From the IMG/VR virus record IMGVR_UViG_3300025767_000013, positions 6,658 to 70,657 of that record: a stretch of 64,000 nt of DNA. One strand, 5' to 3'. The DNA is from a virus. Shown piece by piece: positions 12,726 to 61,301 of this stretch. The notes beneath the pieces are model-generated. The model searched no databases and was not told where the DNA came from. It was given only the letters and a program-made list of their open reading frames with translations. The number at the start of each line of letters is the position of its first letter. Positions within the stretch are counted from its first letter, which is position 1. The translations under genes were made by a program, and so were the position numbers.

Positions 12726-14345
12726 ATGGCAAATTTTGATTTATCTAAGTTAATGGAAGGCCGTAACCCACAAGCAGTAATGTTGAACGAAACTCGTCAA
12801 CTTAAAGGCAAATGGGAAGCAACTGGTCTTCTTGAAGGCTTAAACGCAAAAGAGCAAGGCGCGATGGCGGTATTGCTTGAAAACCAAGCAAAACAATTGC
12901 TTGATGAGGCAACCCAAACTGGTGTTGCTGCAAGTTCAGAAGAATGGAGTGGCGTAGCTCTTCCATTGGTAAGAAGAATCTTTGGTGAGATTGCTTCTAA
13001 AGAATTCGTTAGTGTACAACCTATGAACTTACCTTCAGGTCTTGTATTCTATCTTGATTTCAAATATGGTACTGCACAAGGTGGTAACCCTGCATTCTCT
13101 GGAAAATCACTTTTCGGTGGTACTGGAGCTGACTTAGGTTCTACTGATTCAGCAGTAAATGGTTTATATGGTGAAGGTCGTTTCGGATACTCTGCAAACG
13201 ATGTAACTTCATCTGTAGCTGTTGGTTCAATCACCTTCACTTCAGCTTCTTGGGCTGATGTAGGTTTCGATGCTTCTCTTTCTGCTTCAGTAGCAGCAGG
13301 TGAGGTTGCTAAAGCAACTTTCGCAGCTCCTGCAACTGCAGATTTAGATGGTGTTCGTTCTTTCAATGTAGCTAACGCTGCAGTTGTAACTAACTTGAAC
13401 CAATTCCACTCAGTATCTGGTACTGACTTAGTGTTGATGGTATCTGCATCTGCAGGTTTACAAACTTCTAAGGCTGGATTTGGTGTTGTTACCTATTCAG
13501 TAGTTCCTGCTGATTACGCAAGAGGTGATTTCGAAGATGGTAAAAACGCTGGTCAAATCGCTGGTAATGCTGGTTCAGTTGGTATTGATATCGACATCCC
13601 AGAAGTTGATTTGGAATTGAAATCAGAAGCTATCGTTGCTAAGACTAGAAAGTTGAAAGCAGTATGGACTCCTGAATTAGCGCAAGACCTTAACGCTTAC
13701 CACTCAATCGATGCAGAGGCTGAATTGACCTCTATGTTATCTGATTACATCTCATTGGAAATCGACTTAGAAATCCTTGATATGTTGAAGTCTAACGCAT
13801 TGACTACTGAGTACTGGTCAGCAACTATCGGTGAAGAGTACAACGCTTCAACTGGTGCATGGTCTGCAGCTGCAACTGGTATGGCATACCAAAAGAACAC
13901 TTGGTTCCAAACCCTTGGTACTAAGTTGAACAAAGTATCTAACAAAATTCACCAATTGACATTAAGAGGTGGCGCTAATTTCGTAGTTGCTTCTCCTGAT
14001 GTATGTACTATCTTGGAATCAATCCCTGGATTTACTGTATCTGCGGATAAAGATGCTTCATCTTTCGCAGCTGGTGTAACTACTGTTGGTGCTATCGCAA
14101 ACAGATACACTGTTTATAAGAACCCTTACATGACTTCTAACGAAATCTTATTAGGTTTCAGAGGTTCTAACTTCTTAGAGACTGGTGCTGTTTACGCTCC
14201 ATATGTTCCACTTATCATGACTCCATTGGTGTATGACCCAACTAACTTTACTCCTCGTAGAGGTGTAATGACTAGATACGCTAAGAAGATGGTAAGACCA
14301 GAATACTACGGACGTATCTTCGTTAAAGATTTAGCTTCTATCTAA
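12726..14345 (+). CDS. major capsid protein (T4 gp23-like)
   Basis: LLENQ, LPLVRR, VSVQPMNLPSGLVFYL, AKTRKLKAVWTPELAQDLNAYHSIDAEAEL, YAPYVPL and PRRGVMTRY. Confidence 0.98.
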   Translation: MANFDLSKLMEGRNPQAVMLNETRQLKGKWEATGLLEGLNAKEQGAMAVLLENQAKQLLDEATQTGVAASSEEWSGVALPLVRRIFGEIASKEFVSVQPMNLPSGLVFYLDFKYGTAQGGNPAFSGKSLFGGTGADLGSTDSAVNGLYGEGRFGYSANDVTSSVAVGSITFTSASWADVGFDASLSASVAAGEVAKATFAAPATADLDGVRSFNVANAAVVTNLNQFHSVSGTDLVLMVSASAGLQTSKAGFGVVTYSVVPADYARGDFEDGKNAGQIAGNAGSVGIDIDIPEVDLELKSEAIVAKTRKLKAVWTPELAQDLNAYHSIDAEAELTSMLSDYISLEIDLEILDMLKSNALTTEYWSATIGEEYNASTGAWSAAATGMAYQKNTWFQTLGTKLNKVSNKIHQLTLRGGANFVVASPDVCTILESIPGFTVSADKDASSFAAGVTTVGAIANRYTVYKNPYMTSNEILLGFRGSNFLETGAVYAPYVPLIMTPLVYDPTNFTPRRGVMTRYAKKMVRPEYYGRIFVKDLASI

Positions 14346-14366
14346 TAGTAAGTTAAACTTAATACT

Positions 14367-14397
14367 AAGAGGGGGGAGAAATCTCCCCTCTTTTTTT
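14367..14397 (+). terminator. rho-independent terminator after MCP
   Basis: GAGGGGGGA-GAAA-TCTCCCCTC stem-loop followed by T7. Confidence 0.92.
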
Positions 14398-14423
14398 ATG
14401 TCCACTTTTTTGTAATAAACTTA

Positions 14424-14431
14424 TATTTATA
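14424..14431 (+). promoter_or_regulatory. putative late promoter element TATTTATA
   Basis: Follows the MCP terminator; only 4 nt before ATG 14436. Confidence 0.6.
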
Positions 14432-14435
14432 AGGG

Positions 14436-14660
14436 ATGATGTTAAATTGGCAGAGATATTACGAACTACATAAACATTTGGGAAACATCAATGAGATTGT
14501 TGCCCAATACAATATGTATGTTTACCAAAATGAGGAACAATATGATGCCGAGTTAATAAGAAAAGCAGGAAATTCCGGATTATTCATACTTCAAGAAAAA
14601 AATGGATATGTGATTTTGCAAGAAGGAAAGCATGAATACGGACTATTACAAGAATACTAA
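14436..14660 (+). CDS. small hypothetical protein
   Basis: 74 aa; three LQE repeats at the C-terminus; stop overlaps the next start (TAATG). Confidence 0.6.
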   Translation: MMLNWQRYYELHKHLGNINEIVAQYNMYVYQNEEQYDAELIRKAGNSGLFILQEKNGYVILQEGKHEYGLLQEY

Positions 14661-15973
14661 TGAGTAACAAAAGAATATCAGAATTACAATTAGAAGTAAA
14701 CCCACAAATAAGTGATTTAATTGCACTTGCTTCAGATGGTACTTCCAAAAGAACTACATTGGGTTCAGTTCTCAACTCATCAATACCATCCACATTTGGA
14801 ACTACCACAATCAATGGTGATTTGGATGTAAACGGAAACCTTAGAGTTTCTACATTAATATCCGCATCTATTCTTTACGAAAGTGGTTCAACCATATTTG
14901 GTGACTCATTGGATGATACTCATAACTTCAATGGTGATGTAACCATTAGTGGTTCTCTTTTCATAAGTGGAACAACCGAATTGGGTGGTGATATATACCC
15001 ACAAACTCCACAAGGAGCAACATTAGGAACTCTAGAAAAACCATTCAGAGAAATCTACTTACAATCGGGTTCTATTAACATTGAATCAGATGTACCTGGT
15101 GAACCATCCGCAGTTATTTCTAATAACAACAATAACTTAGAAATATCAATTGGGGGTATGAAATTAATACAACCCGATGCATCATTCGTAGCACCAACGG
15201 GTTCATTCTCTTATTTAAGTTCAAGTTTTAATCATATTGGTACGGCAAATAGATTGGGTGATACTATAACAACGGGTTCATTAAGAGTTAGTGGTTCGAC
15301 AATTATGTTTGGTGATAATACAATGACAGGTAATACTTCATTAACAGGTAGTGTACACATTAGTGGTTCAACTAACTTAGTTGGAAATACTACTTTAGAA
15401 GGAACTACTACATTAAGTGGTAGTGTTTCCGTTACGGGTTCTATGAGTGTTACTGGTTCGGTTGATGTTAGGGGTGATTTTTACCACAAAGGAAATAAAC
15501 AATACAACTACGGACAATTCTATTCACTACAAACACAATCTGGTTCAGCAAATATTGCATACCCAATGAAGTTTGAAGTATCGGATGGTTCGGATGGTGT
15601 ATCTATTGTAAATAACGGAAGTGGATTTCCAACAAGAATTACACCTACACATTCTGGTGTATATAATATTCAATTCTCAAATCAATTGGGTAACACCGCA
15701 AATTCGGACATCACATTTGATATATGGTTCAGAATAAGTGAAGCAAATGTTCCAAACTCAAATACAAAGTTCAGTTTGATTAAATCGTTAGGTAGTGGAT
15801 TATATGCAGTAGCTGCACTAAACTTCTTAACTCAAATAAATGCTGGGCAATATGTAGAAATTATGTGGAGTTCTGCTGCATCAACTGCACGATTTGAATA
15901 TTTGGGAACACAAACAACTCCAACCAGACCAGCAACCCCATCAATCATATTGACGGTAACACAAATAGCATAA
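14660..15973 (+). CDS. fibre/decoration-like virion protein (possible head fibre) with C-terminal beta-sandwich
   Basis: N-terminal KRISEL anchor-like motif; xxSGS/TGS beta-repeats; C-terminal ITPTHSGVYNIQFS...GQYVEIMW resembles C1q/BclA-type trimer domains. Confidence 0.6.
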   Translation: MSNKRISELQLEVNPQISDLIALASDGTSKRTTLGSVLNSSIPSTFGTTTINGDLDVNGNLRVSTLISASILYESGSTIFGDSLDDTHNFNGDVTISGSLFISGTTELGGDIYPQTPQGATLGTLEKPFREIYLQSGSINIESDVPGEPSAVISNNNNNLEISIGGMKLIQPDASFVAPTGSFSYLSSSFNHIGTANRLGDTITTGSLRVSGSTIMFGDNTMTGNTSLTGSVHISGSTNLVGNTTLEGTTTLSGSVSVTGSMSVTGSVDVRGDFYHKGNKQYNYGQFYSLQTQSGSANIAYPMKFEVSDGSDGVSIVNNGSGFPTRITPTHSGVYNIQFSNQLGNTANSDITFDIWFRISEANVPNSNTKFSLIKSLGSGLYAVAALNFLTQINAGQYVEIMWSSAASTARFEYLGTQTTPTRPATPSIILTVTQIA

Positions 15974-16053: not shown

Positions 16054-17202
16054 ATGGCAGTAGAATACATATATCCTGGTTCATCATCATTCTCAGAAGG
16101 ACAAACTCCATTTGGAACATATGATTCGGATTCAACATTCGTATCCGATGCTCCTAAAGTTGCTCTTTGGTGTGCTAGAAGATTGGGATATCCAATCCAA
16201 AATGTAGAATTGGTAGATGAAAGTTTGTATGCTTGTTTCGAAGAAGCAACTTCTGAATACGCAGCACAAGTAAACCAATTCAATATCCGAAACAACTTAG
16301 ATGTTGTTAAGGGAAATCCACTTGGTACAAATTATAGTGGAAAGAATGTTGAGGGTTCATTCCTCCCATCTCTTATTGCTATTGTAGAAGGATATGGAAC
16401 TTTAGCCGGAGTTGGTGGAAATACTGATATCAAAAAGGGTTCAATTGATTTGGTAGCCGGAACGCAAACCTATGATTTGCAATTATTATTTGCTAGTGGT
16501 AGTGAAGCCGGTAAAAAAATCCATGTAACTAAAGTATTCCATGAAGCAACTCCTGCAATCAACAGATTCTTTGACCCTTATTCAGTAAGTGGACAGGGAA
16601 CTCTTAATTTGATTGATGAATTTGGGTTTGGTTCATTCTCACCAGCCGCACAATTTATCTTAATGCCAATTTACGAAGATTTATTAAGAATCCAAGCAAT
16701 TGAGTTCAACGATGAATTCCGTAAATCAGCACACTCTTTTAATATTGTAAATAACAAATTACAAATATTCCCAATACCAACAACAACTGGTAAATTATGG
16801 TTTGAATATTTTGTATCTGATGAATTTGTTGAAAACGAAACCATCGTAACTGATAATGTAGTTTCGGATTACGCAAATATTGGATATGATTTTATTCCAT
16901 ACGCAAATATTAATGATGTTGGTAAACAATGGATTAGAAAATATACACTTGCTCTTGCTAAGGAATTGTTAGGAGCAATTAGAGAAAAATATAGTTCAGT
17001 TCCTATTCCTGGTTCCGAAATATCATTAGATGGAGCAGCTCTAAGGTCAGAAGCTCAAACTGAAAAAGATGCTCTGATTGAACACCTCAGAGAAAACTTA
17101 GAGGAGTTGAGTAGAAAGAATCAGTTTGAGGTGAGAGCACATGAAGCAGACCACCAACAAGAAATGTTGAGAAAAGTTCCACTATTGATTTATACAGGTT
17201 AA
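16054..17202 (+). CDS. neck/head-tail adaptor protein (T4 gp13-like)
   Basis: RRLGYPIQNVEL, WIRKYTLALAKELLG-IREKY and ISLDGAALRSEA match the gp13-like pattern. Confidence 0.85.
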   Translation: MAVEYIYPGSSSFSEGQTPFGTYDSDSTFVSDAPKVALWCARRLGYPIQNVELVDESLYACFEEATSEYAAQVNQFNIRNNLDVVKGNPLGTNYSGKNVEGSFLPSLIAIVEGYGTLAGVGGNTDIKKGSIDLVAGTQTYDLQLLFASGSEAGKKIHVTKVFHEATPAINRFFDPYSVSGQGTLNLIDEFGFGSFSPAAQFILMPIYEDLLRIQAIEFNDEFRKSAHSFNIVNNKLQIFPIPTTTGKLWFEYFVSDEFVENETIVTDNVVSDYANIGYDFIPYANINDVGKQWIRKYTLALAKELLGAIREKYSSVPIPGSEISLDGAALRSEAQTEKDALIEHLRENLEELSRKNQFEVRAHEADHQQEMLRKVPLLIYTG

Positions 17203-17207
17203 GGTAA

Positions 17208-19101: not shown

Positions 19102-19574
19102 TGGCAAGAATAAAACCAAATATTGATTTAGGTACTATTACTAAAAGACGAGATAGAGAATCTTTTAGAAATTTTGTATTGGAGGTAATTGATGATACTT
19201 TTATTTATGAGTTCACCCCAACCTCAATATCATTAGATGGTGAGTTGTTTACCATTCTATTGGGACCTGTTGATAATAGCACACCAGCCGATTCCGATTA
19301 TGCGGACTTTGGTGATATAAAGGGGTATAGATTTATTTACGAAGATTTGCAAGTTTCTGCGATAGAAGATTTTGTTGATGTATATTTATATGGAGTTAAG
19401 CAAACATCTGATAGATACGAAGTTCAAGTATTTAAGGAATCAATTAGAATTAATTCTAATTTTAGTGATGGTGATGAAATACGATTTGTATTTAATCAAT
19501 CCATAACTAGAGTTCCTGGTGATGTTGTTAGAACTGATTTTGAGATAAAAGGTAAAATTGCAGAAATATTATAA
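19101..19574 (+). CDS. hypothetical virion-associated protein
   Basis: 157 aa, coupled on both sides (TAATG); VDVYLYG...FEIKGKI. Confidence 0.65.
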   Translation: MARIKPNIDLGTITKRRDRESFRNFVLEVIDDTFIYEFTPTSISLDGELFTILLGPVDNSTPADSDYADFGDIKGYRFIYEDLQVSAIEDFVDVYLYGVKQTSDRYEVQVFKESIRINSNFSDGDEIRFVFNQSITRVPGDVVRTDFEIKGKIAEIL

Positions 19575-22500
19575 TGGCTAGATTAATTCCACAAAAGCAG
19601 ATTGAAGAAATTAATATTTTTAAGGATAGCATATCCGTTGCTAATTCTGTCTTTATTTCTGGTTCTCTTTATGTATCTCAAAGTGTTAACATTGGTAATA
19701 GCTTATTGGATAAGCAAGAGATTACCGGTTCAGTTGAAATCACTGGTTCATTAAGTGTTGATGGCAATCTTACCTTCAAAAACGCTAATAACCGATTAGA
19801 TGCAACCGCATCCTTTTCTGATGTATCATTAGATACTCAGTTATTTGCCGGTATTAGACCTGAGGATTTTGTAGCATCTGAAGCAACCATTTATGTATCC
19901 TCTACAAGAGGTAGTGATGATAATGATGGTCGTTCACCTGCATTCCCATTAAGAACAATTAAGAAAGCAGCTCAGTTAGCAACACCTGGAGATGATGGTA
20001 GATATGGATTACCAACTGGTTCCTTATTTACTGGATATAGAATTGATGTTGATACTGGTACTTACATCGAAGATAATCCAATCGAACTTCCAAGAAACAC
20101 AACTGTTTGGGGAAGTGGATTGCGTGTAACTAAGATTGTTGCTAAAAACGAAAACGAGGATTTATTTTGGGTAAACTCTGGTTGTTATCTTGCGGAGATG
20201 ACATTTGCTGGATTGAGAGTATATCCATCGGTTGATAATTCTCAGAAAGGATTCGCTATCGCATTTGCGCCAAACGCATTTATTACAACATCTCCCTACA
20301 TTCAGAACTGTTCGATGATTTCGAATCAGGAAAACTCATTCTTAGAAGCATACGAAGAGATTCCTGCTGGTGGTGGTGGTTTGAATGTGGATGGTAATAA
20401 GATTCACCCTGATTCTCCATTGGCATCAATGGTATTAGATGCATATACTCAGATTGCACCAAATGGTGTAGGTTGTCAAGTTGTTGGTAGAGGATTCATT
20501 CAGTTGGTATCTTTCTTCACCAACTTCTCCGCATACTCAGTAAAAGTATTGGATGGTGGACAGGCTGTATTACTTAACTCCAACACCTCATTTGGTGATT
20601 ATGGTATGTATGCTAGTGGTTCTCGTTTCATTACTGGTAGTGGTGGTAACACCGATGCATTCTTAAATGTACAGGATAACTATTCAATTATTGTTAATAC
20701 AATTGAAAAAGGATTATCAGCAATTCCAGCATTAGTTCCAAACGCAGCTAATGGTATTAGAGTAACTGACCCAAATATAATTGAACAATATTTCGTATCC
20801 GAAGATTCATCTGCAGATGTGGCTGAAGCGGTTAAATCCGATTTCAGATTAGTAAGTTCAATTGTTGAAAATGGAAATTCTAATGTTCCAACTCTTATTG
20901 CTAAGAGTAGTACATCTGGATACTCACCTACATCAGTTTACAATATCTCAGGCCAAACCCAATACACTTCATCGGTTAGTGCATCTGCGGAAGATGTGGC
21001 ATTGGTTGATACAAACTTTGATATCTTATTGGATATTATTGAAAGAGGAAACGCAGCAACCGCATCTTATGTTGAGATTTCAAATGTATCTCATTCGATT
21101 CAAATAAGTGATATTGAACAATATAAAGGATTGGGTTCATCTGCTACTACAATAGAGAAAGTTAGTAGTGGATTTAATACAATTATGGAAATTATATCAA
21201 CTGGTATTACAACGGTTGATATTGTGAGTAATACATCGGCTAGTTATAAAGTAACCGATACAACAATTTACGAAACTGATATCAGTTCATCGCAATCTAC
21301 AATTGATTATGTGAGTTCATCTCTTTCAATTGTTTATGATATTTTAGCAAATGGTACCGCATCGGCACCTACAATAATTCTAAGTAGTTCTATTGAGAAT
21401 CCAACAATTGAGATTCAGAATGCATACGAATTATTGATAAACAATATTCCATTTATTCAAGAGGAAACCATAGTTTACCTATCTTCTTCTTGGAGTGAAC
21501 ATCCATACAATCAAGAGACTTGTAAGAGAGATATTGGATACATTATAAGTGGTGCGGCACATGACCTTCTTTATGGTGGTAATGAGGAATCGGTAAGAAG
21601 TGGTTTATTCTACTACCTATACCCATCCAACGCAACTACATCAGAATTAGACCCAACTTTAACAGGTATCAAATACGCAAGTGGGTTAGCTCAGAATATA
21701 TTAGCTGGTAAAATTTTCTCCGATACAACGGTTGAAAATGAAAATGGATATGATGTTATCTTCCAAAACAAAGATTTTGTAATTGAAGAAACCATATTAT
21801 ATATTTCATCTTCTTGGAGTGGATTTGATTATAATGAAGCTAAGTGTAGACGAGATACTGGTTATATCTTAGACGCTGTTGCAACGGATTTAAGATATGA
21901 TGGTAATGAGAGAAGTGTAACCGCTGGTGAGTTCTATTACAAATATCCATCCCAAGCAACATCTACTCAGTTAAATCAAACAATTGATGCGATTAACTAC
22001 GCTAAGAGATTAACTGAAAAATTATTAAATAACGATACTTTTGGACAACCATCCGCATCGGTAATTGGGGCTGTTGATTTGATGAGAGAAAACCGCTCAT
22101 TGATTCAAGACGAAACTATTACATTTATCAACACACAATATCCAAACTTTGATTATAATCAAACCAAATGTAGAAGAGATGTTGGATATATCATTGATAA
22201 CATTGCAACCGATTTATTATATGGTGGTAATGAAAGAACTGAAATAGCTGGTTTATATTATTTCTTATATCCATCTATCGCTAACACTACTCAATTAACC
22301 GAAACTTTATTAGCTATTGAGTATGTTAATGGTTTAGTTGATGAGGTAATCCAATCCAATGTATTACCTACACCACAAGTTGTATTGAATGTTGATGGTA
22401 ACATTAAAGTAACCACATATAATTCAGTAACATCATCAATTTCGGCTACCGATACTGAGGTTACTTTAGTATCTCAATCATTCAATATTGTTGAAGATAT

Positions 22501-34017: not shown

Positions 34018-34881
34018 ATGGCAGATGTTTTTGTACCCTTAAACGCATTTAAGTCGGTAGTAACTACTCTGACTGGAGAAGATGACCAAATTTATACTAC
34101 TCCAGCCGGAGTTTCTACTATTATGCTATCAGCTCAAATCACTAATAATAATGATTCTGAGGCTGAAAATGTAACTATTAAGTTGACATCCAATAGAGAA
34201 ATACCAGTTCCTCAAGTAGCTGATATTATCAATACTGGTAGTATGTATAGTGCTTCCGCACTTTTGGAAGAAAATTTAACATTTTTGAAAAAAGAAGTAG
34301 CAGCTTATACTCAATTTAATAATAACCTATTGGATACTCCATTTGGGTTTTCACAATCCAGATATGAGGCATATGTAGATACTGCTGTAAACGCTGCTGC
34401 ATATGATATAGCTAATGGTGGTACAATTAGAACAACAAAAGCAGCATTATCTTTTTATAATAAAAATGGTGTATCGTTAATTCCTGATGGGCAAGTAACA
34501 GCATCCAAAGATGCAATTGATTATACAAATGTATTAGCTCAGCAAATCATACTAAATGAATCAGTAACTGGTTCGACTGATGTAATAAGATTATACCAAA
34601 CAACATATACTCAATCATTCAATTATGATTTAATTGCCGAAACTGGGTCCGCAGAATTTATTTCTGAAATATTTACTGTTATATCGGATACAATTTATGA
34701 CCCAGTCAGAGAATTGCAGGAATCGATAGAATTTGTTAATAATTTTCCTATACCAATTGGGGATTCATTTTCACCAGTAGTAGCTGGTAAATTGGTATTA
34801 GAAGAAGAATTTGGATTAATTTTTTCAGGTTCTGAAAATTTGAAGGTAGTTCTATCACTTCTTGAAAGTGCAAATGAATAA
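34018..34881 (+). CDS. fibre accessory protein: small beta-sandwich with one inserted helical repeat
   Basis: Ends resemble the 110-aa protein at 47848; middle resembles one degenerate repeat of the 4800-aa protein. Confidence 0.65.
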   Translation: MADVFVPLNAFKSVVTTLTGEDDQIYTTPAGVSTIMLSAQITNNNDSEAENVTIKLTSNREIPVPQVADIINTGSMYSASALLEENLTFLKKEVAAYTQFNNNLLDTPFGFSQSRYEAYVDTAVNAAAYDIANGGTIRTTKAALSFYNKNGVSLIPDGQVTASKDAIDYTNVLAQQIILNESVTGSTDVIRLYQTTYTQSFNYDLIAETGSAEFISEIFTVISDTIYDPVRELQESIEFVNNFPIPIGDSFSPVVAGKLVLEEEFGLIFSGSENLKVVLSLLESANE

Positions 34882-47012: not shown

Positions 47013-47465
47013 ATGTATATAAAAATAAAAGATGGAATTATAACATACCCCTATACGATTGGGGAGTTAAAATCAGAAAATCCAAATGTAAGTTTTCCTC
47101 AAGCTATCACTAATGAAGTTTTGGAAAACTTTGGTGTTTATCCAGTAGAATCGGTTGAAGTAACTGATGATTACACAAAAAATATAGTGGAAGGAACTCC
47201 AACACTATCTGGTTCGGTATATATTCAAACTTGGAATATAACCGATGCAACTGAAGAAGAAATTAATATTAAAATTGCAGAAAAGTGGTTGGAAGTTAGA
47301 GATATGAGAGATTCTTTATTATCTCAATCCGATTGGACTCAATTCCAAGATTCACCAATTAGTGGTTCCACTTTAACTGAATGGCAAACATATAGACAAT
47401 CATTACGAGATATAACATCTCAATCAAATCCATTCGATTTAGTTTGGCCTTCCAAACCAATGTAG
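47013..47465 (+). CDS. tail fibre assembly chaperone
   Basis: VRDMRDSLLSQSDWTQ...WQTYRQSLRDIT...WPSKP is the typical phage tail assembly chaperone C-terminus. Confidence 0.85.
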   Translation: MYIKIKDGIITYPYTIGELKSENPNVSFPQAITNEVLENFGVYPVESVEVTDDYTKNIVEGTPTLSGSVYIQTWNITDATEEEINIKIAEKWLEVRDMRDSLLSQSDWTQFQDSPISGSTLTEWQTYRQSLRDITSQSNPFDLVWPSKPM

Positions 47466-47515: not shown

Positions 47516-47836
47516 ATGAGAATAGACCAACCCAGTTTTTCCGGCTCAATTACACAAGCTCCTTCGGCATATGCGGACTTAAGTGGTTCGTTTACGGGGA
47601 GTTTTACTGGGTCATTTAAGGGTGATATTTCGGTAGATACAGCAGAGTTTACTAACCTAAGTGTAAGAGATTCTCTTGCAATTGGTTATGAGAAAGATGT
47701 AAATACCGAATATGTAATTGTTGCTAGTGGTTCTATTTCTATTAGTGGTTCCGTTGATTTACAAGGTGGTGGATATAATGTAGATGGGGTAAATGTGTTA
47801 GATTCAGCAATCGCATTTGCAATTGCATTAGGATAA
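47516..47836 (+). CDS. short fibre-like virion protein
   Basis: SGSFTGSFTGSF repeats; ends SAIAFAIALG. Confidence 0.7.
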   Translation: MRIDQPSFSGSITQAPSAYADLSGSFTGSFTGSFKGDISVDTAEFTNLSVRDSLAIGYEKDVNTEYVIVASGSISISGSVDLQGGGYNVDGVNVLDSAIAFAIALG

Positions 47837-54100: not shown

Positions 54101-57100
54101 ATGGATACAATGCTAGATTTAGAACTGGTGGTACTGGATTGGATTTCTATACCGATGGTGGTAATAACACTGGAACTTATTCTGGATTCATAGGGTCTGG
54201 ATATGTTCAGGGTATTGATTCTATCAGAGGACCAATCTTCTACGATTCAAACGATACAACATATCGTGTTGACCCTAATGGAGATTCTCGTATATGGCAG
54301 TTGGGTATTGGATATGGTTTACCTGGAAAAAGATTAGATGTAATTGGTGACCACGGAACCTCTGCTATGAGGGTTCAATTACCTGCTTCAAACAATGGTG
54401 CGGGAACTGGTATTGTACAATTACAAATGTGGACATCTGAACCAGGTAACACTTGGGATTGGGGTGGATTTGGATATAATGTTGATAACGCATATAACGG
54501 AAACACCAACACATACTACTTTGGTAGACCAAATACCAACTTTGGACAGGCCTACATGAGATTCTCCACTGCGGGACATACATATTTCTATAACACAAAT
54601 ACTTCTGGTACTCGTTCTACGAATATGGAGATGTATTCAAGCGGATACATTTATGTGAACAATTACCTACAAGCTGGAAACTCATTAAGAGCACCAATTT
54701 TCTATGATTCGGATAATACTGGTTATTATGGAAATTTCGCAGGTACTTCTAGAATAAGTTCATTAGAAACTATTGACCGGGTTGTTATTGGTGGTACATT
54801 TGACTACAACGCATACAATCAGGTAGGTTCTACGAGATTACATTTCGGTGGTGGTAACTCAGATGCAAATGGCAACTACTACATTGGTACAAACTTAGAA
54901 AACTATGGTGGTAACTACGCCAAATTAGATTTAAGATGGCATACTGGTATCCGTATGGGTGCACAAGCTGGATATGGTGGTATCAGAATGTACAACAATG
55001 AGGATTTATCAACAATGCTATTCTCAGTTGGTAGAAGTTCTGAAGATGTTGAAGTTACTTACAACCTAAGAGTTGGTGGGGAAAAAGCAATCAACTATCG
55101 AAATATGCATGTTGGTTCATTTACCAACTTAGCAACGGCAGAAGATTGGGTAGTTAGTACTGGTTCTAACAACGCAGCATTGGGTGGTGGATTTGGACAA
55201 AATGGTGATGGTAACTCAGTAATTCAAGACTTTGACCCGTGGGGTAGACCTTCATTGGTTTGGAGAACATTAGGAAACGATACCTCATCAAACGCAGATG
55301 GTGGTTGGAACAAAGGAATATCTAACTTAGATGGTAATAAATCATATATGTATGTGGTTTATGTGAAGAGAGATTCTTCATCTACGAATGGTACTTATTA
55401 TTTTGGATGTAGTGGTGGTGAAACACTTAACATGAGTGGTTCTACAAATGGTAACCCATACTTCCATGCATTTGGTATCGGTTCACTTCCGCAAGGAGTT
55501 TGGTGTGTTGCTGTTGGATATGTATTTGCAAACAATCACCCATCTACTGGTTCAACTGGTAGAGGTGGTGTTTGGCGATTGGATACTGGTGATAAAATTT
55601 CAGGTTCTACTGATTACAAAATGCGGTACACTGGTACAAGAGGTCAAACACATAGAACTTACTTATACTACTCAACTGACCCAGCAGCTCACTTAAAATG
55701 GTGGGGGCCTGGTGTATATGAAATCAATGGTAACGAACCTAACTTAGGTGAACTTTCTGGTGGAGTTGTAGTAGAAGGTGGACAAAACATTAACGGACAA
55801 TTAACTGTTCAGGGTAATGTATTCGCTGATGTGTATTATGATAGAAATAACACATCTTACTACGGTGATTTCGCATCTACTTCATATGTAAATGATTGGA
55901 GAGCAAATATTGTTTACGATAGAGAAGATACTGGATACTACTTCGGTAGTGGAGCTGGTGATACTCGAGTTAGAACTTTATCAACAACAGGTCAGATTTT
56001 TATTGAAAATGGTGACCCAACAATTTACTTTAGAGATAATAACCATCGTTCTGCGATGATTCACGTTAACTCTAACATATTCTATGTATTAAGAGGAACA
56101 GGTAACAACTCAACTTCTTGGGGAACTTACAATGGTTATTGGCCATTGGAAATCAACCTCAATAACAACGATGCTACATTTGGTGGTAATGTAACCGCAA
56201 TCTACTCAATGTATGCAGAGACATACTATGATAGAAACGATAGTGGATATTATGTAAATCCTGCTGGATTCTCTAACTTTGGACAATCTAATGGACCTGT
56301 TATGCAGATAACCAAAACGGGTTCTGCACCAGGAAATAATATGACGATGCTTGTACGGAATCAGTATGGTAACCACTCTTGGGGTATTACCGCTGAATTT
56401 AGAGTAGAAGCTAGTGGTGGTGGAGATAGACCATCTATTTTATTCTCATCTGGATACAATAGTAGAACTTGGTCTGTTGGATATGGATATAACGATGATA
56501 ACTTCCGTATCAACACAAACCACGGACATAGAAACGGAAGTTGGGGTTCAACCAGAATGTTGATTGACACTGGTTCAACAACATATTTCTACGATACAAT
56601 CCGATTCCCATTTGCATATGACCAAAACAATACTGGTTACTATATGGATATGGATGGTACATCCCGTACAAACTATATCGTAGGTAACCGAATAAAATTA
56701 GTTAACAATGTTAACAACGAACCTCGTTGGGATTTCTCCGCATATGTAGTTGAAGCACAACATTGGTATGGTAACTACTCAACTCAAACAATGTATTTGG
56801 GTGAAAGTAATGTGGTATATATGCCGGATATCCGACCATACATTATGTATGATAGGAATGATACTGGATACTATATGGACCCTAATAGTACATCCAGAAC
56901 CGCATATACCTTATCAAATGATACTCGTATCATTAACGATTTGTATTTGGACCAACAATATGGTTCTCAGACAGTAGGTGTTTACTCATCATATAGATTG
57001 CAAGGTGTATTTGCAATGGGTAGCTCTTATATGTTACCAAAAGCTGGTACATCTACTGGTAACCTTTATGGTATGGCTTGGTCACACCCTAATGCAGGTG

Positions 57101-58869
57101 GTGTAGCAGCTAACTTGAATGACCACGGTTTATTGATTATCAATAATGGTGGATTCCGAGCAGCTATTTCATCTAGAATTGTAGCATCTTCTGATGTTAG
57201 GGGTACTTTATTCTATGATTATAATGATACTGGATACTATGTAGACCCTAACTCTCAACACGGAACAAATATCAATGGTCTTACTGATAGAAGTAGGGCT
57301 ATGACTGGTCTTTCGGGTAGATACTCATATATGAGACCTCAAATTACAGGTAATACCAGCTATTGGACTGGTAATTTTGGTTGGGGCTCATATACTTTCA
57401 ACGAAATGTTGGGATGGGGTTCTGGTTTCATTGATAGCTGGGGTTCAACTGGTGCACAAAATAGACCTGGTGATACATCTCACCACGTAGGTATCCAAAC
57501 ATTCCACTGGTCAAGCGGAAGTAACGCTTATGGGTGGCAGATGATTGGTGGTGTAAACGAAAACTTATGGTGGAGATATTCTTGGAACTCTCCATCTGGT
57601 TGGTATAAGATTGCGATGTATGGTAACAACTCATCAACAAGTTCGTTCTACGCAACTATTTACTATGATTCAAACAACACCGGATATTATTCAGACCCGA
57701 ATGGTGGTTCTCGTCTAAACGAAATTTACTTAGACCAGGGTTACAACTACGGATGGTGGAGAAACTACAACTCAACGGGTCTTTATAACCAAACTTGGGG
57801 TAGAGGTATTTGGGCAGCTGAAGCTGGTGGTAACTCATATGGTAACTACACAACTTATGATAGTGGTAGAAACGGCTGGGCTGGTTGGGGTATCGGTTCT
57901 CGTTATGTATTCATGTCAACAAATGGAGATAATGTAGGTGTACATGATAACTCCAGAGGTTGGGTATGGTACATGAGTGGTGCTGAAATGAATATGTATT
58001 ATGCTGGTAGCCGCCGGATGGTTACTGTTAGTTATGGTGTATATGTTGATAACTCTTTACGAATTGGTGGAGATGCAAGAGCACCAATCTTCTATGACCA
58101 AAACGATACAGGGTACTATTTAGACCCTAACTCAACATCGAACAATGCACTTCGTATGAGAGGTGGAGCATTATTTGGACCAAACTCATCATGGGGTAGA
58201 TATTTGTATGTTGGTGGAAATGGTAATGTATCAAGTGAGGCTTGTGTTGCAGCTACGAATGGTAACCTACACTTAGATGCACGTTCTGGATATAGTACAT
58301 ACATAAACTGGTATGTGGGTGGAACAACCTATATCAATGGTACTTTGCAGGTTAACTTTATGTATGATAGAGATAACACTGGGTACTATTGGGATGGTAA
58401 CAGCACTTCTAGAATGTATAGAACAAACTATGATTATGTTTATTCTTACAACTGGATTTACGCACAAAGTGATATTATCGCATACTACTCCGATGAAAGA
58501 TTAAAAACTAAGTTGGGTAACATTGAGAATGCATTGGATAAAATCACCAAATTAAATGGATTCTACTATGTTAATAACGATTTAGCAAAATCAGTTGGAT
58601 ATACAAATGAGAAGCAACAAGTCGGTTTATCGGCACAAGAAGTTCAAAGCATACTTCCTGAAGTTGTAACGATTGCACCATTCGATACATTGTTCGATGA
58701 GAATGAACAACCAATCGGTTCTAAATCTGGCGAAAACTACTTAACTGTAAACTACGATAAGATTGTTCCATTGTTGGTTGAGGGTATTAAAGAGCAAAAC
58801 GAATTAATTAAATCACAACAACAACAAATTGATGAGTTGAAAGAGATGATTAAATCGTTAATGAAATAA
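48193..58869 (+). CDS. long tail fibre (3558 aa) with C-terminal intramolecular chaperone (peptidase S74-like)
   Basis: YYSDERLK...I.NAL.KI..LNG...GLSAQEV...LPEVV...VNYDKIVPLLVEGIKE plus terminal coiled coil; collagen-like tract; about 16 (R.PI)FYD..(N/D)TGYY.DP spacer repeats. Confidence 0.9.
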   Translation: MEYKGKNPNGINQISQSLLSIDVNGVEQAQVSLTSVDINTNLSVADGVSANTYTGSAFSGSFIGDGSELINIPFEGLTPDAQSKIESGAGTARISNDKLSINVNTDVTGSILATGTVSASFLAGDGSQITNISATSIGDIDKLKSGSAQAVISPNRGLEVNTGVVIEKYLGVSGSAVIGSNASVGGDLNVAGKITSTELHTTYISSSVIFSSGSNKFGDQASDSHQFTGSVYIKDELRIPAYASDPAGGETGDIYYNTVDTNIYRYTGTQWLQAAGTAGTSGTSGTSGTGGSSGTSGTSGVSGTSGTSGTSGTSGTSGTTGSAGTSGSSGTAGTSGTTGSGGTSGSSGTSGSGGTSGTSGTSGTSGTSGERGTSGTSGTSGTSGTSGTSGSGGTSGSSGVGSSGTSGTSGSGGTSGTGGTSGTSATSGTSGTSGSSSTAGSGGTSGSSGTTGSFGTSGSSGTSGTRGTAGSGGTSGTSGTSGTSGRDGAVGDGGSSGTTGSAGTSGTSGTSGEKGTSGSPGTSGSSGTSGTSGSGGTSGTNSTAGTGGTSGSSGTSGTSGTSATSGSGGTSGTSATAGSGGTAGTSGTSGTSGSSGTTGSAGTSGTSGTSGTSGTSGTSGVDGIQGSQGTSGSPGTSGSSGSSGTSGTAGSGGSSGTSGSGGTSGSGGSSGTTGTAGSGGTSGSGGSSGTSGSSGTSGSGGTSGSGGSSGTSGSAGTSGLLSLTGTTNNGVITLNGTAPNATVESNLLFDGTTLTVNGNLSVTGTTTTVNTETILLADNIITLNSNFTTGTPTENAGIEVLRGGSATRQFYWNESAAKWYSDTDFEANGSIYAQNAYIDDYIYHNGDTNTYIRFVAADDFQIVVGGRQALRMDEGTDPDRLRFVTDSDWTDSSGNWNMSGNVTIGGTIDTGQGATEVYLMDQNVRTTDSPTFAGLTVGGISVSPSTYFRLLSGGTGASIDTYTDNGFRTLGYSGYSSILWSTNAGGSTGTVQMEFEYNTPSRGFKIRNKTDNTTWSSVGWVVMTTSNQGHISGTVWHSNNDGAGSGLDADLWDGYQFSNYLNQAVRTSDSPTFVRLTLSQATGTAPLTVSSTTLVSNLNADLLDNQQGTYYDHRRYTDSSNYLGGYYVSGGTEKPNNTVFGAGKLKLAMLSGGNLGFGGPWNDVLWMSSYNGSDVKRSSALVFNKYDNTSVWIAKQNFDSATWGTGYLLWNSGNDGAGSGLDADLWDGYQFSDYLNQAVRTTDNVTFNDVNVSGDIKMNGSDSYIWMPNNNSYSTGFYDPVSGLVPIQVNGPSDGIYIGNNAWWSYNTANNNNYNENIRLFAAANGVSVIAFRASGTGGQPSNSILGYSDRFEIRQGSQWQQRNYANYVEAYGDFRAPIFRDSNNTGYYVDPNSTSNMYRVQVNEYIIAANGNGRIILGGNFHIDSFNGNDIYVNYYNNARFRVWNGSSSERFRVDTDGIVYAFQELRTPILYDYNDTTYRFDGNGTSVLNYSKLRNAYDWEERRFTNPQGGTFTTSTSSITGAIRLFLPADRRRSNTMLRMTVKVYEYNTGNSHTFNVGGYNYYTGQWYNVFATQLTDSGKGALIVRFGDDGSRQWITIGEAGTTWTYPQVHITDVEVGYSGFSSNWGQDWVVNFGGIPGGENSSRTASLVLTSNNASSNTADVYGGNAYFSRYYDRDNTGYYVDPASTSLMYDVRAYNRLYIGSSTSNLNINYDQIWRPDGGQIHIGYSAANNIQLNNGGGYTYSLTSLRAPIFYNYSNTGYYADFDSTGTSINIAGSVNAATYNKPGLLVNASGTSSSGGALGIQQVTSEGWTGIFVDFEPYTGWGLWHDNPNNYFSFTAEASTGQIRSFTVPSRQSGNRTAYEKFRVDQNSGDVIIGRDGYAQSSFRAPIFYDTDTSYYVDPNGTTNIRYLKVNTTGTSSGTRALTIKSDGQGEINFGSYPASWSSALQIQNNNNTDFIWISPLDDGYNARFRTGGTGLDFYTDGGNNTGTYSGFIGSGYVQGIDSIRGPIFYDSNDTTYRVDPNGDSRIWQLGIGYGLPGKRLDVIGDHGTSAMRVQLPASNNGAGTGIVQLQMWTSEPGNTWDWGGFGYNVDNAYNGNTNTYYFGRPNTNFGQAYMRFSTAGHTYFYNTNTSGTRSTNMEMYSSGYIYVNNYLQAGNSLRAPIFYDSDNTGYYGNFAGTSRISSLETIDRVVIGGTFDYNAYNQVGSTRLHFGGGNSDANGNYYIGTNLENYGGNYAKLDLRWHTGIRMGAQAGYGGIRMYNNEDLSTMLFSVGRSSEDVEVTYNLRVGGEKAINYRNMHVGSFTNLATAEDWVVSTGSNNAALGGGFGQNGDGNSVIQDFDPWGRPSLVWRTLGNDTSSNADGGWNKGISNLDGNKSYMYVVYVKRDSSSTNGTYYFGCSGGETLNMSGSTNGNPYFHAFGIGSLPQGVWCVAVGYVFANNHPSTGSTGRGGVWRLDTGDKISGSTDYKMRYTGTRGQTHRTYLYYSTDPAAHLKWWGPGVYEINGNEPNLGELSGGVVVEGGQNINGQLTVQGNVFADVYYDRNNTSYYGDFASTSYVNDWRANIVYDREDTGYYFGSGAGDTRVRTLSTTGQIFIENGDPTIYFRDNNHRSAMIHVNSNIFYVLRGTGNNSTSWGTYNGYWPLEINLNNNDATFGGNVTAIYSMYAETYYDRNDSGYYVNPAGFSNFGQSNGPVMQITKTGSAPGNNMTMLVRNQYGNHSWGITAEFRVEASGGGDRPSILFSSGYNSRTWSVGYGYNDDNFRINTNHGHRNGSWGSTRMLIDTGSTTYFYDTIRFPFAYDQNNTGYYMDMDGTSRTNYIVGNRIKLVNNVNNEPRWDFSAYVVEAQHWYGNYSTQTMYLGESNVVYMPDIRPYIMYDRNDTGYYMDPNSTSRTAYTLSNDTRIINDLYLDQQYGSQTVGVYSSYRLQGVFAMGSSYMLPKAGTSTGNLYGMAWSHPNAGGVAANLNDHGLLIINNGGFRAAISSRIVASSDVRGTLFYDYNDTGYYVDPNSQHGTNINGLTDRSRAMTGLSGRYSYMRPQITGNTSYWTGNFGWGSYTFNEMLGWGSGFIDSWGSTGAQNRPGDTSHHVGIQTFHWSSGSNAYGWQMIGGVNENLWWRYSWNSPSGWYKIAMYGNNSSTSSFYATIYYDSNNTGYYSDPNGGSRLNEIYLDQGYNYGWWRNYNSTGLYNQTWGRGIWAAEAGGNSYGNYTTYDSGRNGWAGWGIGSRYVFMSTNGDNVGVHDNSRGWVWYMSGAEMNMYYAGSRRMVTVSYGVYVDNSLRIGGDARAPIFYDQNDTGYYLDPNSTSNNALRMRGGALFGPNSSWGRYLYVGGNGNVSSEACVAATNGNLHLDARSGYSTYINWYVGGTTYINGTLQVNFMYDRDNTGYYWDGNSTSRMYRTNYDYVYSYNWIYAQSDIIAYYSDERLKTKLGNIENALDKITKLNGFYYVNNDLAKSVGYTNEKQQVGLSAQEVQSILPEVVTIAPFDTLFDENEQPIGSKSGENYLTVNYDKIVPLLVEGIKEQNELIKSQQQQIDELKEMIKSLMK
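49018..50349 (+). repeat. collagen-like (Gly-X-Ser/Gly/Ala)n tract 3
   Basis: About 440 aa of GTS/GSS/GSG/GTA triplets. Confidence 0.9.
51310..51915 (+). repeat. internal duplication NDGAGSGLDADLWDGYQFSxYLNQAVRT (starts about 51310 and 51832)
   Basis: Two near-identical 28-aa segments with synonymous DNA divergence. Confidence 0.8.
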
Positions 58870-58934
58870 ATGTGATATTTATTTATAATACTTAAAAGAA
58901 AAAATCTAAAATTATCTTTTGGGGATTTTCTTTA

Positions 58935-58942
58935 TATTTATA
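58935..58942 (+). promoter_or_regulatory. putative late promoter element TATTTATA (second copy at 58880-58887)
   Basis: Two copies in the gap before the sheath gene. Confidence 0.65.
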
Positions 58943-58991
58943 TGTGTATTTGATATTTTAGTCAAAAAAAACTTATTGGAGAAAAAATAAT

Positions 58992-61301
58992 ATGGCAGAA
59001 AGAATTGTATCACCTGGAGTATTCACAAGAGAAAATGACCTTTCATTCTTGGCTCAGGGAATCGGAGAAATAGGAGCAGCAATCGTAGGACCTTTCAAAA
59101 AAGGACCAGCATTCGTTCCAACAATCATTAGAACACAATCTGAATTTGAGGACAAATTTGGAACACCTGATGGAACTTACTATACGGAGTATGCAGTACA
59201 AAACTATCTTAGAGAAGCTGGTACTGTTACTGTTGTTAGAGTAATGAATGTAGGTGGTTACTCTCAAGTAACACCAATTGGTATCGCAGTTTCTGGTTCT
59301 ACTGGTTATAAATTAGTATCAACTCTACATTCAACCGCAGCTGGTGATGAAGAAGTTGGTTTTGGTGCATTCACCATTACCGATGGAACTGCTTCTGGTT
59401 CGTTTGTTGTTAGTGGTAGTGGAATTGGTGAAGTATCTTCATCTATCAAACCAGCTGACAATAATGATGTAGCTGATGTATTTGGTGAATCACCATTTGG
59501 TTCTAAGCACGGATATGTTTATTCATTCTTTGAGAATGTAGCATCTCAATCAGTAGCTGACCACGATGATACAAATGGTTGGGGATTAGATGTTTCAGCT
59601 GTTGCACTTGCAACTCAAGAATTCGGTGATGCATCTTACGCAACTACTCCATATGTAAAATCACAACTTATCTCTAACGAAAGATTTGATTTGTTCCGTT
59701 TCCACACTTTAGGATATGGTAACAATGAGAACACTAGATTTAAGGTTTCAATCTCCAATGTAAAAGCAGCAGGTGAAGATGGTGGTACTGACTACTCAAC
59801 TTTCTCTGTAACAATTCGTTCATTCGCTGATACTGATAAAAGAAAATCAGTATTGGAAACATTTAATAATGTAAACTTAGACCCATCATCTCCAAACTTT
59901 ATCGCTAGAAGAATCGGTGATAGATATTTAACTATCGATTCAAATGGTAAAATTACTGAAAATGGTGATTGGGTAAATAACTCAAAATATGTAAGAGTAG
60001 AAGTTGTAGCACAGGGACAATATCCTGTATCAGCAGCACCTTTCGCTCATGGAGCATACACTAACCCAATTTATGTAGGTGGAACTGAAACTTTAGTACC
60101 AGCTGTTGTTTATCAAACAGCATCTTCTGGTAATACTGCTGGTTCTCCAATCTACTACGCTGGTTTCGATTTCGAAACCGCTGGTGTTAAATTGGATAAC
60201 GCTAACTATTTGGCACCACTTCCTAACAACGCATCTACTGGTTCAAATGTGGACTTCGGATTTGATTCTCAACTTTCTTACGAAATGAGTGGTTCAGATT
60301 CTTCTGATATGGTTAAGAGACAATTCTCATTAGCATTCCAAAGTGGATTCGATGGACAATCTCCAGCAATTAGAATCGCTAAAGCTGGTGATAACGATTG
60401 GGGAGTAGCAAATACGCAAGGATTCAATTGTTCTTCAGCAACCGCTAGTGGTTCAGTAGCATACACTAAAGCATTAAACGCAATTTCTAATCCTGATGAG
60501 TGGGATATCAATATGTTGGTAACTCCAGGTATCGTAAGAAGCTTACACCCATCAGTAACTACAAAAGCAATTGATATTGTTGAAGATAGACAAGATGCAT
60601 TCTACATCGCTGATTTCAACGATTTCGATGATACAATCGCTGAGGCAACCACACAGGCAACCGCAGTTGATTCAAACTACGCAGCAACTTATTACCCTTG
60701 GGTTAAGACAGTTGATACGAACACTAACAAATTAGTAACTGTTCCACCATCAGTATTGATGCCAGCTGTATTCGCAGCAAATGACGCTATCGCAGCTGAA
60801 TGGTTCGCACCTGCTGGTTTGAATAGAGGTGGTATCGTAGGAGCAGTTTCGGTTCTTAATAGATTGACACACTCTGAAAGAGATACTTTATACGAAAACA
60901 AAGTAAACCCAATCGCAGCATTCCCTGGACAAGGTATTGTGGCATTCGGACAGAAAACATTGCAAGATAAATCATCAGCATTGGATAGAATCAATGTAAG
61001 AAGATTGTTAATCACTGTTAAGAAGTTCGTAGCATCTACTTCTAGATTCTTAGTGTTCGAACAAAACACCGCTCAGACAAGAGGTAAATTCATCAATACC
61101 GTACAACCTTACTTAGAGGGTATCCAACAAAGACAAGGTTTATACGCATTCAAAGTGGTAATGGATGAAACCAATAACACACCGGATGTAGTTGATAGAA
61201 ACATTTTAGCTGGACAGATTTTCCTACAACCAACTAAGACCGCTGAATTCATCGTAATTGATTTCAACATCTTACCAACTGGAGCATCGTTCTCAGCATA
61301 A
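58992..61301 (+). CDS. contractile tail sheath protein (gp18-like)
   Basis: VSPGVFTRENDLS, YAATYYPWV, WFAPAGLNRG, GQKTL...SALDRINVRRL and FKVVMDETNNTPDVVDRN. Confidence 0.97.
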   Translation: MAERIVSPGVFTRENDLSFLAQGIGEIGAAIVGPFKKGPAFVPTIIRTQSEFEDKFGTPDGTYYTEYAVQNYLREAGTVTVVRVMNVGGYSQVTPIGIAVSGSTGYKLVSTLHSTAAGDEEVGFGAFTITDGTASGSFVVSGSGIGEVSSSIKPADNNDVADVFGESPFGSKHGYVYSFFENVASQSVADHDDTNGWGLDVSAVALATQEFGDASYATTPYVKSQLISNERFDLFRFHTLGYGNNENTRFKVSISNVKAAGEDGGTDYSTFSVTIRSFADTDKRKSVLETFNNVNLDPSSPNFIARRIGDRYLTIDSNGKITENGDWVNNSKYVRVEVVAQGQYPVSAAPFAHGAYTNPIYVGGTETLVPAVVYQTASSGNTAGSPIYYAGFDFETAGVKLDNANYLAPLPNNASTGSNVDFGFDSQLSYEMSGSDSSDMVKRQFSLAFQSGFDGQSPAIRIAKAGDNDWGVANTQGFNCSSATASGSVAYTKALNAISNPDEWDINMLVTPGIVRSLHPSVTTKAIDIVEDRQDAFYIADFNDFDDTIAEATTQATAVDSNYAATYYPWVKTVDTNTNKLVTVPPSVLMPAVFAANDAIAAEWFAPAGLNRGGIVGAVSVLNRLTHSERDTLYENKVNPIAAFPGQGIVAFGQKTLQDKSSALDRINVRRLLITVKKFVASTSRFLVFEQNTAQTRGKFINTVQPYLEGIQQRQGLYAFKVVMDETNNTPDVVDRNILAGQIFLQPTKTAEFIVIDFNILPTGASFSA

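Follow-up and report, generated by a model that had tools for sequence, protein, structure and literature searches.

To our knowledge, phage virions that are glycosylated by the phage itself have so far been documented mainly in mycobacteriophages, and we know the TibC/Aah (BAHT) family of protein O-heptosyltransferases only from the glycosylation of bacterial adhesins. The subject here is a BAHT gene carried by an uncultured phage, IMG/VR record IMGVR_UViG_3300025767_000013, together with the giant fibres encoded on the same contig. The contig is 70,657 bp long with nearly all of its genes on one strand, and its bases 6658-70657 make up the window, the stretch of 64,000 nucleotides that was analysed; positions marked L001 are contig bases and all other gene positions are those of the window. 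The reading that best accommodates the data is that the enzyme may O-heptosylate the giant fibres on serine, with proline-free collagen-like tracts as the likeliest sites, and that there is no virion-wide sequon. This reading is judged about equally likely to be right or wrong, and we infer all of its steps beyond the family identity of the enzyme. A literature search, with subscription journals and supplementary files outside its reach, found no paper linking the BAHT family to phages and none on Microcystis phage Mel-JY01, a cultured relative that carries the gene.

The closest described system is TibC/AAH with TibA/AIDA-I of E. coli. TibC modifies serine, not threonine, in TibA, at the sites QN-S-GG and NT-S-AA; its catalytic base is Asp-110, its donor contacts are Thr-226, Lys-230 and Trp-305 and it has a four-Cys iron finger, while Arg-286 is a sugar-binding residue needed for activity and Pro-300 the stereoselectivity residue, as set out in the accessible part of the report (PMC4358343). 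Mycobacteriophages use their own glycosyltransferases to modify virion proteins, with glycans on the capsid and tail-tube C-termini (Freeman et al. 2023, as given in the accessible part of PMC12619734). The system proposed here is alike in that a phage-encoded glycosyltransferase would act on the phage's own virion proteins, but the enzyme family and the sugar differ and, judging from the use of heptose, so does the type of host. An O-glycosylated collagen-like region is found in BclA of the Bacillus anthracis exosporium, which has G-P-T triplets with Thr acceptors and rhamnose/anthrose oligosaccharides. The phage fibres share with BclA a prokaryotic collagen-like G-X-Y filament, proposed here to bear O-linked sugars on hydroxyl residues at the outer surface, whereas their triplets are proline-free G-T-S and G-S-S and the candidate sugar is heptose. 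Among viruses of eukaryotes, Mimivirus L230 hydroxylates Lys and adds glucose, viral collagen-like proteins are described and giant viruses have clade-specific sugar clusters (PMC9614988, in the part accessible). There too a virus encodes collagen-like surface proteins together with an enzyme and sugar pathway for their glycosylation, and sugar gene sets vary between related viruses, but the enzyme belongs to another family.

The sugar cassette lies at contig bases 33-8298 (L001), mostly just upstream of the window; the initial annotation had expected the phage to have its own O-glycosyltransferase, along with sugar-nucleotide genes, in another part of the genome, and a search outside the window located them here. 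It begins with a 592-aa GT4/methyltransferase protein (L001 33-1811; Pfam Glycos_transf_1 and Methyltransf_24), an ORF that is cut by the contig start and reaches 720-727 aa in relatives. This is followed by the 382-aa BAHT protein (L001 1802-2950; NCBIfam and PDB searches), a 129-aa HldE-domain-II-like protein (L001 2947-3336; best NCBIfam match, E 3.8e-28), a 250-aa HldE-domain-I-like PfkB kinase (L001 3329-4081; best NCBIfam match, E 1.8e-35) and, as the last gene of the cassette, a 1263-aa protein with an N-terminal nucleotidyltransferase domain, assigned by Pfam, NCBIfam and PDB searches and by synteny in related loci, whose C-terminal part is encoded at 1-1641 of the window (plus strand). 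A PDB sequence search returned nothing for the 592-aa protein and matched the 1263-aa protein only via its nucleotidyltransferase domain.

Sequence comparisons place the 382-aa protein in the TibC/Aah (BAHT) family. With NCBIfam TIGR04414 ('autotransporter strand-loop-strand O-heptosyltransferase', equivalog cut-off 200) it reaches 268.9 bits over positions 12-373 of the 374 in the model, and residues 42-374 align with chain positions 41-379 of the TibC structures 4RAP/4RB4 (E 1.4e-49). The homology to TibC/AAH is full-length. The equivalents of Asp-110, Thr-226, Lys-230 and Trp-305 are identical, the four iron-finger cysteines (Cys-339, 342, 358 and 370) are aligned, and all eight positions are invariant in 121/121 members of the clade. 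[quoted passage not shown] The known chemistry of the family is Ser-specific, and a supply of ADP-heptose is implied here by the neighbouring HldE-like genes. Unlike its bacterial counterparts, the phage enzyme is encoded inside a virion gene block with no autotransporter partner: no autotransporter family was noticed among the contig's 41 ORFs, and the neighbours of the BAHT gene are fibre, chaperone, sugar and packaging genes.

The candidate acceptors are two of the three giant proteins. In p3735 (gene 34904-46111, plus strand), the stretch aa 2281-3580 (41744-45643) matches Pfam Collagen at E 2.1e-110 and the protein has 1029 residues in G-X-Y runs, counted as runs of six or more triplets, with 165 G-T-S and 98 G-S-S triplets. 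In p3558 (gene 48193-58869, plus strand), which ends in an S74 intramolecular chaperone (Pfam Peptidase_S74), the tracts lie at aa 276-721 (49018-50355; E 1.7e-30) and comprise 411 residues, with 70 G-T-S and 17 G-S-S triplets. Both proteins are thus collagen-like but atypical, with near-zero proline, X being T or S and Y being S. The Ser of a G-T-S-G tract stands in a T-S-G context that resembles the TibA sites N-S-G and T-S-A, a comparison with two sites. Under the preferred reading, the cassette would raise the supply of an ADP-heptose-type donor late in infection and a ring of BAHT would add heptose to giant-fibre serines before or during assembly, chiefly at the Y-position Ser of the G-T-S/G-S-S tracts, those of p3735 being the main acceptor, after which the GT4/methyltransferase protein may extend or cap the sugar. 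Such a coat would stiffen or stabilise the proline-free collagen helix and mask or diversify the fibre surface; if this is right, it would explain how a collagen-like helix is stabilised without proline, supply a candidate mechanism for variation of the fibre surface and widen the substrate range of BAHT enzymes.

The enzyme and the tracts occur together beyond this contig. G-T-S/G-S-S tracts were found here, in a complete relative (G001), in a more distant phage (G002), in Mel-JY01, in locus L076 and in the megaphage LR756501, each of them with BAHT. The BAHT-lacking genome G007 has none along its full length, and none occur in the structural regions fetched of LR756508, Flavobacterium phage immuto, T4 and P-HM1. 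In the reverse direction, a DNA pattern for five G-T-S-like triplets was scanned against IMG/VR and matched at least 120 stretches, and 15 large or multi-hit contigs were chosen among the matches listed, blind to BAHT status, of which 12 were examined. All 12 encode G-T-S/G-S-S ORFs and seven have BAHT above the cut-off, including the sole contig rated 100% complete, against none of seven records fetched for other reasons (Fisher p 0.016). The BAHT ORFs of these positive contigs are 394-1462 aa long and mostly fusions, which indicates that the contigs come from other lineages.

More broadly, a BAHT relative is encoded in 180 IMG/VR stretches and 3,422 database proteins match the enzyme at E <= 1e-20, while among 50,697 deposited phage genomes only four have it, one being Mel-JY01, which is syntenic with the contig. 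Of the ORFs in 81 BAHT loci, 70 had their best match in the GT4/methyltransferase protein, 72 in the 1263-aa protein, 69 in the terminase and 61 in the portal. The cassette adjoins the terminase in most related loci, where the BAHT gene lies between the terminase and a giant fibre gene accompanied by its chaperone, within the late structural block and on the strand that this block uses. In this clade the enzyme stands alone as a protein of 380-385 aa, whereas in other phage lineages it is fused into larger proteins of 675-1462 aa with glycosyltransferase or methyltransferase domains, a further difference from TibC/AAH. Examples are Mel-JY01 (L002 4747-8430), G002 (98624-101356), LR756501 (L100 18759-20975) and G008-G019; the Mel-JY01 fusion also has a GT1 match and is annotated as an FkbM methyltransferase. 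In LR756501, BAHT is paired with a homologue of the GT4/methyltransferase protein and a 695-aa Ser/Thr/Gly-rich ORF. An enzyme family different from those of the mycobacteriophages is present in the structural block of an abundant uncultured phage group and is linked, genome-wide, to an unusual proline-free collagen, and the existence of a cultured relative with BAHT, Mel-JY01, makes the hypothesis directly testable.

Several observations weigh against fibre heptosylation as just described. The known BAHT substrates, in the accessible part of the TibC report, are beta-helical autotransporter passengers, not collagen helices (PMC4358343), so that the proposed fibre substrate, possibly a collagen-like helix, would be a departure for the family. 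The Arg-286 equivalent is not conserved in the clade (S 49, L 42, K 13, G 6, others) and is Lys in the 382-aa protein, where an Arg six residues downstream means that the alignment is possibly shifted at this point, and the Pro-300 equivalent is Gly; with both residues changed, the donor sugar may differ from that of TibC. The HldE-like proteins fall below their equivalog cut-offs (domain II 98.1 against 181.5, domain I 122.6 against 345), so the identity of the substrate sugar is only indirectly indicated. A complete phage-encoded heptose pathway was considered and rejected, as neither GmhA nor GmhB was found in G001, G002 or Mel-JY01, and part of the donor pathway would accordingly have to be supplied by the host. 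What connects the enzyme with the fibres is co-occurrence and gene position, and that co-occurrence has exceptions: five of the 12 tested contigs, one 84% complete and four fragments of 17-42% completeness, were BAHT-negative, LR756504 has BAHT and no collagen tract within 20 kb, only 5/80 BAHT loci have a G-T-S/G-S-S tract within 10 kb, and the tracts of the present phage are 40-60 kb away from its BAHT gene. The tested contigs were, moreover, our own choice among the matches listed, and shared ancestry or habitat could be a part-cause of the association.

The same serines had first drawn attention through a tripeptide. The initial annotation assigned the window to a T4-like structural module with three giant ORFs and a fibre chaperone, and this gene map holds: the window encodes the large terminase, a gp20-type portal, an S77 prohead protease, a gp23-type capsid protein, a neck adaptor, a gp15-like protein, the sheath, a gp19-type tube, a baseplate protein, a fibre assembly chaperone and giant ORFs of 4800, 3735 and 3558 aa (p4800, p3735 and p3558), with matches to the Pfam families Gp23, Portal_T4, sheath, gp19 tube, gp15, S77 protease and T4 baseplate. 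The contig is evidently a fragment of a jumbo phage, since its close IMG/VR relatives are complete genomes of ~238-271 kb. It was further proposed that [ST][GAS]S is enriched throughout the exterior proteins of the virion, in folds that are unrelated, and is nearly absent elsewhere. The motif was therefore counted in all 41 ORFs of the contig against shuffles of the whole protein and within windows of 10, 20 and 40 aa; the per-protein figures below are observed against expected counts in 20-aa window shuffles, 400 for each protein, with the number of shuffles that reached the observed count.

An excess over the local shuffles was present in some of the virion proteins and not across the virion. 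It was clear in the short fibre p437 (14660-15973; 14 against 4.6, 0/400), in p287 (34018-34881; 6 against 0.8, 0/400), in p106, a small beta-rich fibre-associated protein (47516-47836; 6 against 1.4, 1/400, and 6 against 0.6 in its G001 orthologue), in the sheath (gene 58992-61301; 10 against 3.5, 1/400) and in p4800 (19574-33976; 112 against 33.5, 0/400), and modest in p3735 (270 against 229.5, 0/400). No enrichment was found in the capsid protein (12726-14345, Pfam Gp23 E 1.6e-75; 4 against 2.8, 109/400, with no [ST]GS at all), the neck adaptor (16054-17202, PHROG head-tail adaptor Ad2; 2 against 1.1, 125/400), the fibre assembly chaperone (47013-47465, Pfam Phage_tail_APC E 1.8e-17; 2 against 0.5, 34/400, both of them [ST]GS sites) or p3558 (56 against 70.3, 397/400); all of these genes are on the plus strand. 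Acceptor tails of the mycobacteriophage type were likewise not seen in the capsid protein, whose C-terminus has no Ser/Thr-rich tail, or in the tail tube, with no motif matches. Capsid, neck, tube and internal proteins are thus not enriched. The remaining 31 ORFs of the contig together had 8 matches against 11.9 in whole-protein shuffles, and so the motif is indeed rare there, but as a consequence of composition and not through avoidance.

Three further leads were tried and discarded. DNA-level repeats were ruled out as the cause of the motif, as its codons are varied and the signal is therefore at the level of protein. Avoidance of the motif in enzymes was suggested by pooled homologues (terminase, for example, 1 against 22.6), but the relatives are not independent and the rest of G001 has 22 against 26.3. 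A depletion of [ST]NS in the contig (2 against 35.1 in whole-protein shuffles) is weaker in G001 and G007 and is mostly an artefact of the composition of the giant proteins.

The tripeptide is a merger of three separate habits of fibrous proteins rather than one recognition sequon. The first is the run of proline-free G-T-S/G-S-S collagen triplets in p3735 and p3558. In both giants the reverse pattern S[GAS][ST] outnumbers the forward one (373 against 270 and 114 against 56, respectively), which marks the tripeptide there as a by-product of the triplet repeat; 105/270 and 28/56 of the forward matches fall inside G-X-Y tracts.

The second habit is the repetition of conserved positions in internally duplicated units of p4800 and its paralogue p287. 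An [ST]GS shaft forms the N-terminus of p4800, a protein that has no Pfam family above cut-off and also contains some 20 copies of a ~115-aa repeat (YLSSSWS...C.RD.GY...YGGNERS, with no matching Pfam family) and a ~50-aa repeat (VSSSFxIVxDI..NGxGSLPT). At least 61 of its 112 matches occupy fixed positions of these two repeat families, as the initial annotation had noticed for the helical repeats. A longer form of the ~115-aa pattern reads SSSWS...Y(N/D)E..C.RD.GY..DA...D..YGGNERS...G.(F/Y)YY.(Y/F)PS, and aa 3000-3400 hold four copies of an FTFTCEMDGN-type unit together with HTFVSAS repeats. Because p287 is paralogous to one p4800 repeat unit (blastp E 6e-7) and the p437 shaft resembles the N-terminus of p4800 (E 1e-3), the carriers of the motif are not all unrelated folds, and the argument from convergence is weakened.

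The third habit, a strand-[ST]-G-S-strand turn with invariant Gly and Ser, is found in the shafts of p437, p106 and the N-termini of the giants and in the variable insertion of the sheath. Of the variants, [ST]GS alone accounts for the signal in the seven smaller virion proteins (31 against 4.2); [ST]AS stands at 9 against 3.8, [ST]SS at 4 against 5.1 and [ST]GT at 2 against 3.5. On either side of 58 [ST]GS sites, hydrophobic residues alternate at -3, -1, +1 and +3 with frequencies of 0.45-0.57 against a background of 0.33, the pattern expected of two strands joined by a tight turn. p437 comprises an N-terminal anchor, a beta-rich x-h-[ST]-G-S-h shaft with a weak bactofilin-type match and a hexapeptide period at aa 220-275, and a C1q-like tip that matches an annotated C1q/cerebellin roll fold; p106 has six h-[ST]-G-S-h sites, identified from its sequence and local shuffles. 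Across 120 homologues of p437 there are 1549 [ST]GS against 184, and 92 [ST]GT against 167; S136-G137-S138 and G181-S182 are invariant, and the slot after Gly in the family is filled by S 715, N 292, D 180 and T 91 times. All 10 motif sites of the sheath lie in its variable insertion (aa 91-490, 59262-60461; PHROG and Pfam sheath matches) and none in the conserved C-terminal core; across 120 close homologues, Ser at the third position hardly ever varies (S137 and S435, each 121/121) while position 1 swaps between S and T.

Separately, the p437 tip (aa 283-437, window 15506-15973) matches proteins of freshwater phages, namely Limnohabitans phages, spring-water metagenome phages and Acinetobacter phage phiAC-1. 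The C-terminal domain is likely a trimeric tip for receptor binding, one that phages of no close kinship exchange with each other.

Relatives with and without BAHT allow the turn motif to be set against the enzyme. In G001, [ST]GS is concentrated in the 65 ORFs of the structural block (396 against 111.5) and not in the other 248 (35 against 30.2), with 13 individually enriched ORFs in the block and one elsewhere. That single ORF, at 224873-227383, encodes a protein of 836 aa that is rich in Ser and has VSSSxQI and TGSINS repeats; it is probably a further fibre whose gene lies apart from the main module. G007, a complete 238-kb relative whose terminase is 72% identical and whose sheath is about 55-58% identical, has no BAHT, yet has 148 [ST]GS against 52.0 and 46 [ST]GT against 46.3. 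Immuto, also without BAHT, has an enriched sheath (7 against 1.2) and one enriched fibre (12 against 1.2), a 373-aa protein with 12 [ST]GS to 1 [ST]GT. Conversely, G002 has BAHT, yet its sheath is at 1 against 0.6 and there is no virion-wide enrichment, the only excess being in a collagen-like giant and one 556-aa protein. The turn motif is thus decoupled from BAHT. It is not a general property of phage fibres either: the structural regions of T4, P-HM1, HTVC008M and LR756508 showed no enrichment, and the fibrous and beta-helical T4 proteins gp5, gp10, gp12, wac and hoc have no [ST]GS.

This decoupling counts in favour of the likeliest rival, in which all three habits are requirements of fold (collagen triplets, cores of repeat units and tight beta turns), the cassette acts elsewhere (on a host autotransporter or surface protein, on host LPS or on a phage protein outside the virion) and the virion is unglycosylated. 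The [ST]GS excess and the bias of Ser over Thr persist without BAHT in G007 and the immuto fibre, the enzyme is present without sheath enrichment in G002, the slot after Gly also takes Asn and Asp, which cannot be O-glycosylated, and the flanks of the sites look like beta strands. The absence of [ST]GS from the T4 fibrous proteins sits poorly with a general demand of fold, however, and G007 and immuto are not sugar-free controls, since both carry other sets of glycosyltransferases, four matches being clustered at 50-59 kb in immuto; for the turn motif there is accordingly no clean comparison of phages with and without BAHT. A target away from the virion is also at odds with the position of the BAHT gene in the late structural block of most related loci, with the lack of an autotransporter-like gene noted above, and with the presence of BAHT in 7/12 G-T-S/G-S-S contigs compared with 4/50,697 phage genomes. 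Overall, this explanation is rather unlikely. Its account of the turn is nevertheless adopted in part: as the motif persists without BAHT, is missing with BAHT in G002 and admits Asn and Asp after Gly, it is read as mainly structural, a turn that would not owe its existence to BAHT and may serve as a secondary strand-loop-strand acceptor.

A second rival makes those strand-[ST]-G-S-strand turns of the shafts and sheath insertion the true BAHT acceptors and the collagen tracts bystanders. The curated name of the family and the TibA data, so far as the accessible part of the source goes, point to Ser in short loops between short beta-solenoid strands, and a near-invariant third-position Ser with exchange of S and T at position 1 of the sheath sites is compatible with a Ser-only enzyme. 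Gene order can be cited in its favour too, as the p437 homologue of Mel-JY01 (13 against 2.2) is directly upstream of the BAHT fusion gene, relatives show enrichment in the giant fibre that immediately precedes the cassette, and 44/80 BAHT loci have at least one motif-enriched ORF. Of six [ST]GS sites in the sheath, BAHT-bearing relatives keep four and three and BAHT-lacking ones of similar divergence one and none (Mel-JY01, 51% identical, keeps three, G007, 58% identical, one and LR756508 none); the numbers are very small, but they are some evidence that turn sites may also be BAHT targets and to that extent count against the tracts as chief acceptor. Set against this are the same enrichment in G007 and immuto, which lack BAHT, its restriction in G002, which has BAHT, to the collagen-like giant and the 556-aa protein, and a site context, G-S-h, that differs from the [NT]-S-[GA] of the two TibA sites in the accessible text (PMC4358343). 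That the turns are the true acceptors is therefore decidedly unlikely. The third possibility, the claim of the initial annotation that [ST][GAS]S is one convergent sequon, shared by capsid, sheath, neck and fibres, through which a single modifier of the phage coats the whole particle, is very improbable even though a candidate phage protein O-glycosyltransferase with donor-synthesis genes exists and the enrichment in G001 is limited to the structural block, because capsid and neck are not enriched, [ST]SS and [ST]AS add little outside p4800, the collagen fibres favour the reverse pattern, some of the carriers are paralogues and the motif is decoupled from BAHT in G007, immuto and G002.

Returning to heptosylation of the giant fibres, G007 suggests how the arrangement may vary among relatives. 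At the position syntenic with what lies just before 1-1641 of the window, ahead of the 1263-aa homologue and the terminase, it has a sugar island of another kind, ~21 kb long (~160.8-181.9 kb; L193, L194), with three GT7N/7C+Laminin_G_3 paralogues, a GT2-like gene, Methyltransf_24, three NAD epimerase/dehydratases and a dTDP-4-dehydrorhamnose 3,5-epimerase, as well as two radical SAM enzymes, a TPP E1/transketolase-like pair, an HAD phosphatase and a GDSL enzyme. The slot upstream of the terminase looks like a swappable glyco-cassette. Extending this, it is possible, though we advance it tentatively, that in widespread aquatic jumbo phages giant (G-T-S/G-S-S)n fibres are hyper-heptosylated by a captured autotransporter heptosyltransferase fed by HldE-like genes, and that the slot is an exchangeable virion glyco-cassette (BAHT and heptose here, three GT7 enzymes with lectin domains and a deoxy-sugar pathway in G007), such that, on similar fibres, the sugar coat would differ from one related phage to the next, as O-antigens do among bacteria.

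Two minor observations concern other genes. In LR756508, a 484-kb uncultured phage, two sheath paralogues lie about 1 kb apart (L084 16512-18986 and 20001-22475), 29% and 45% identical to the sheath of the window. Between the protease and the scaffold region, the window encodes a 171-aa protein with DUF3008 (10783-11298; E 3.1e-15), and the corresponding stretch of Mel-JY01 holds an annotated ribosomal protein S21 gene.

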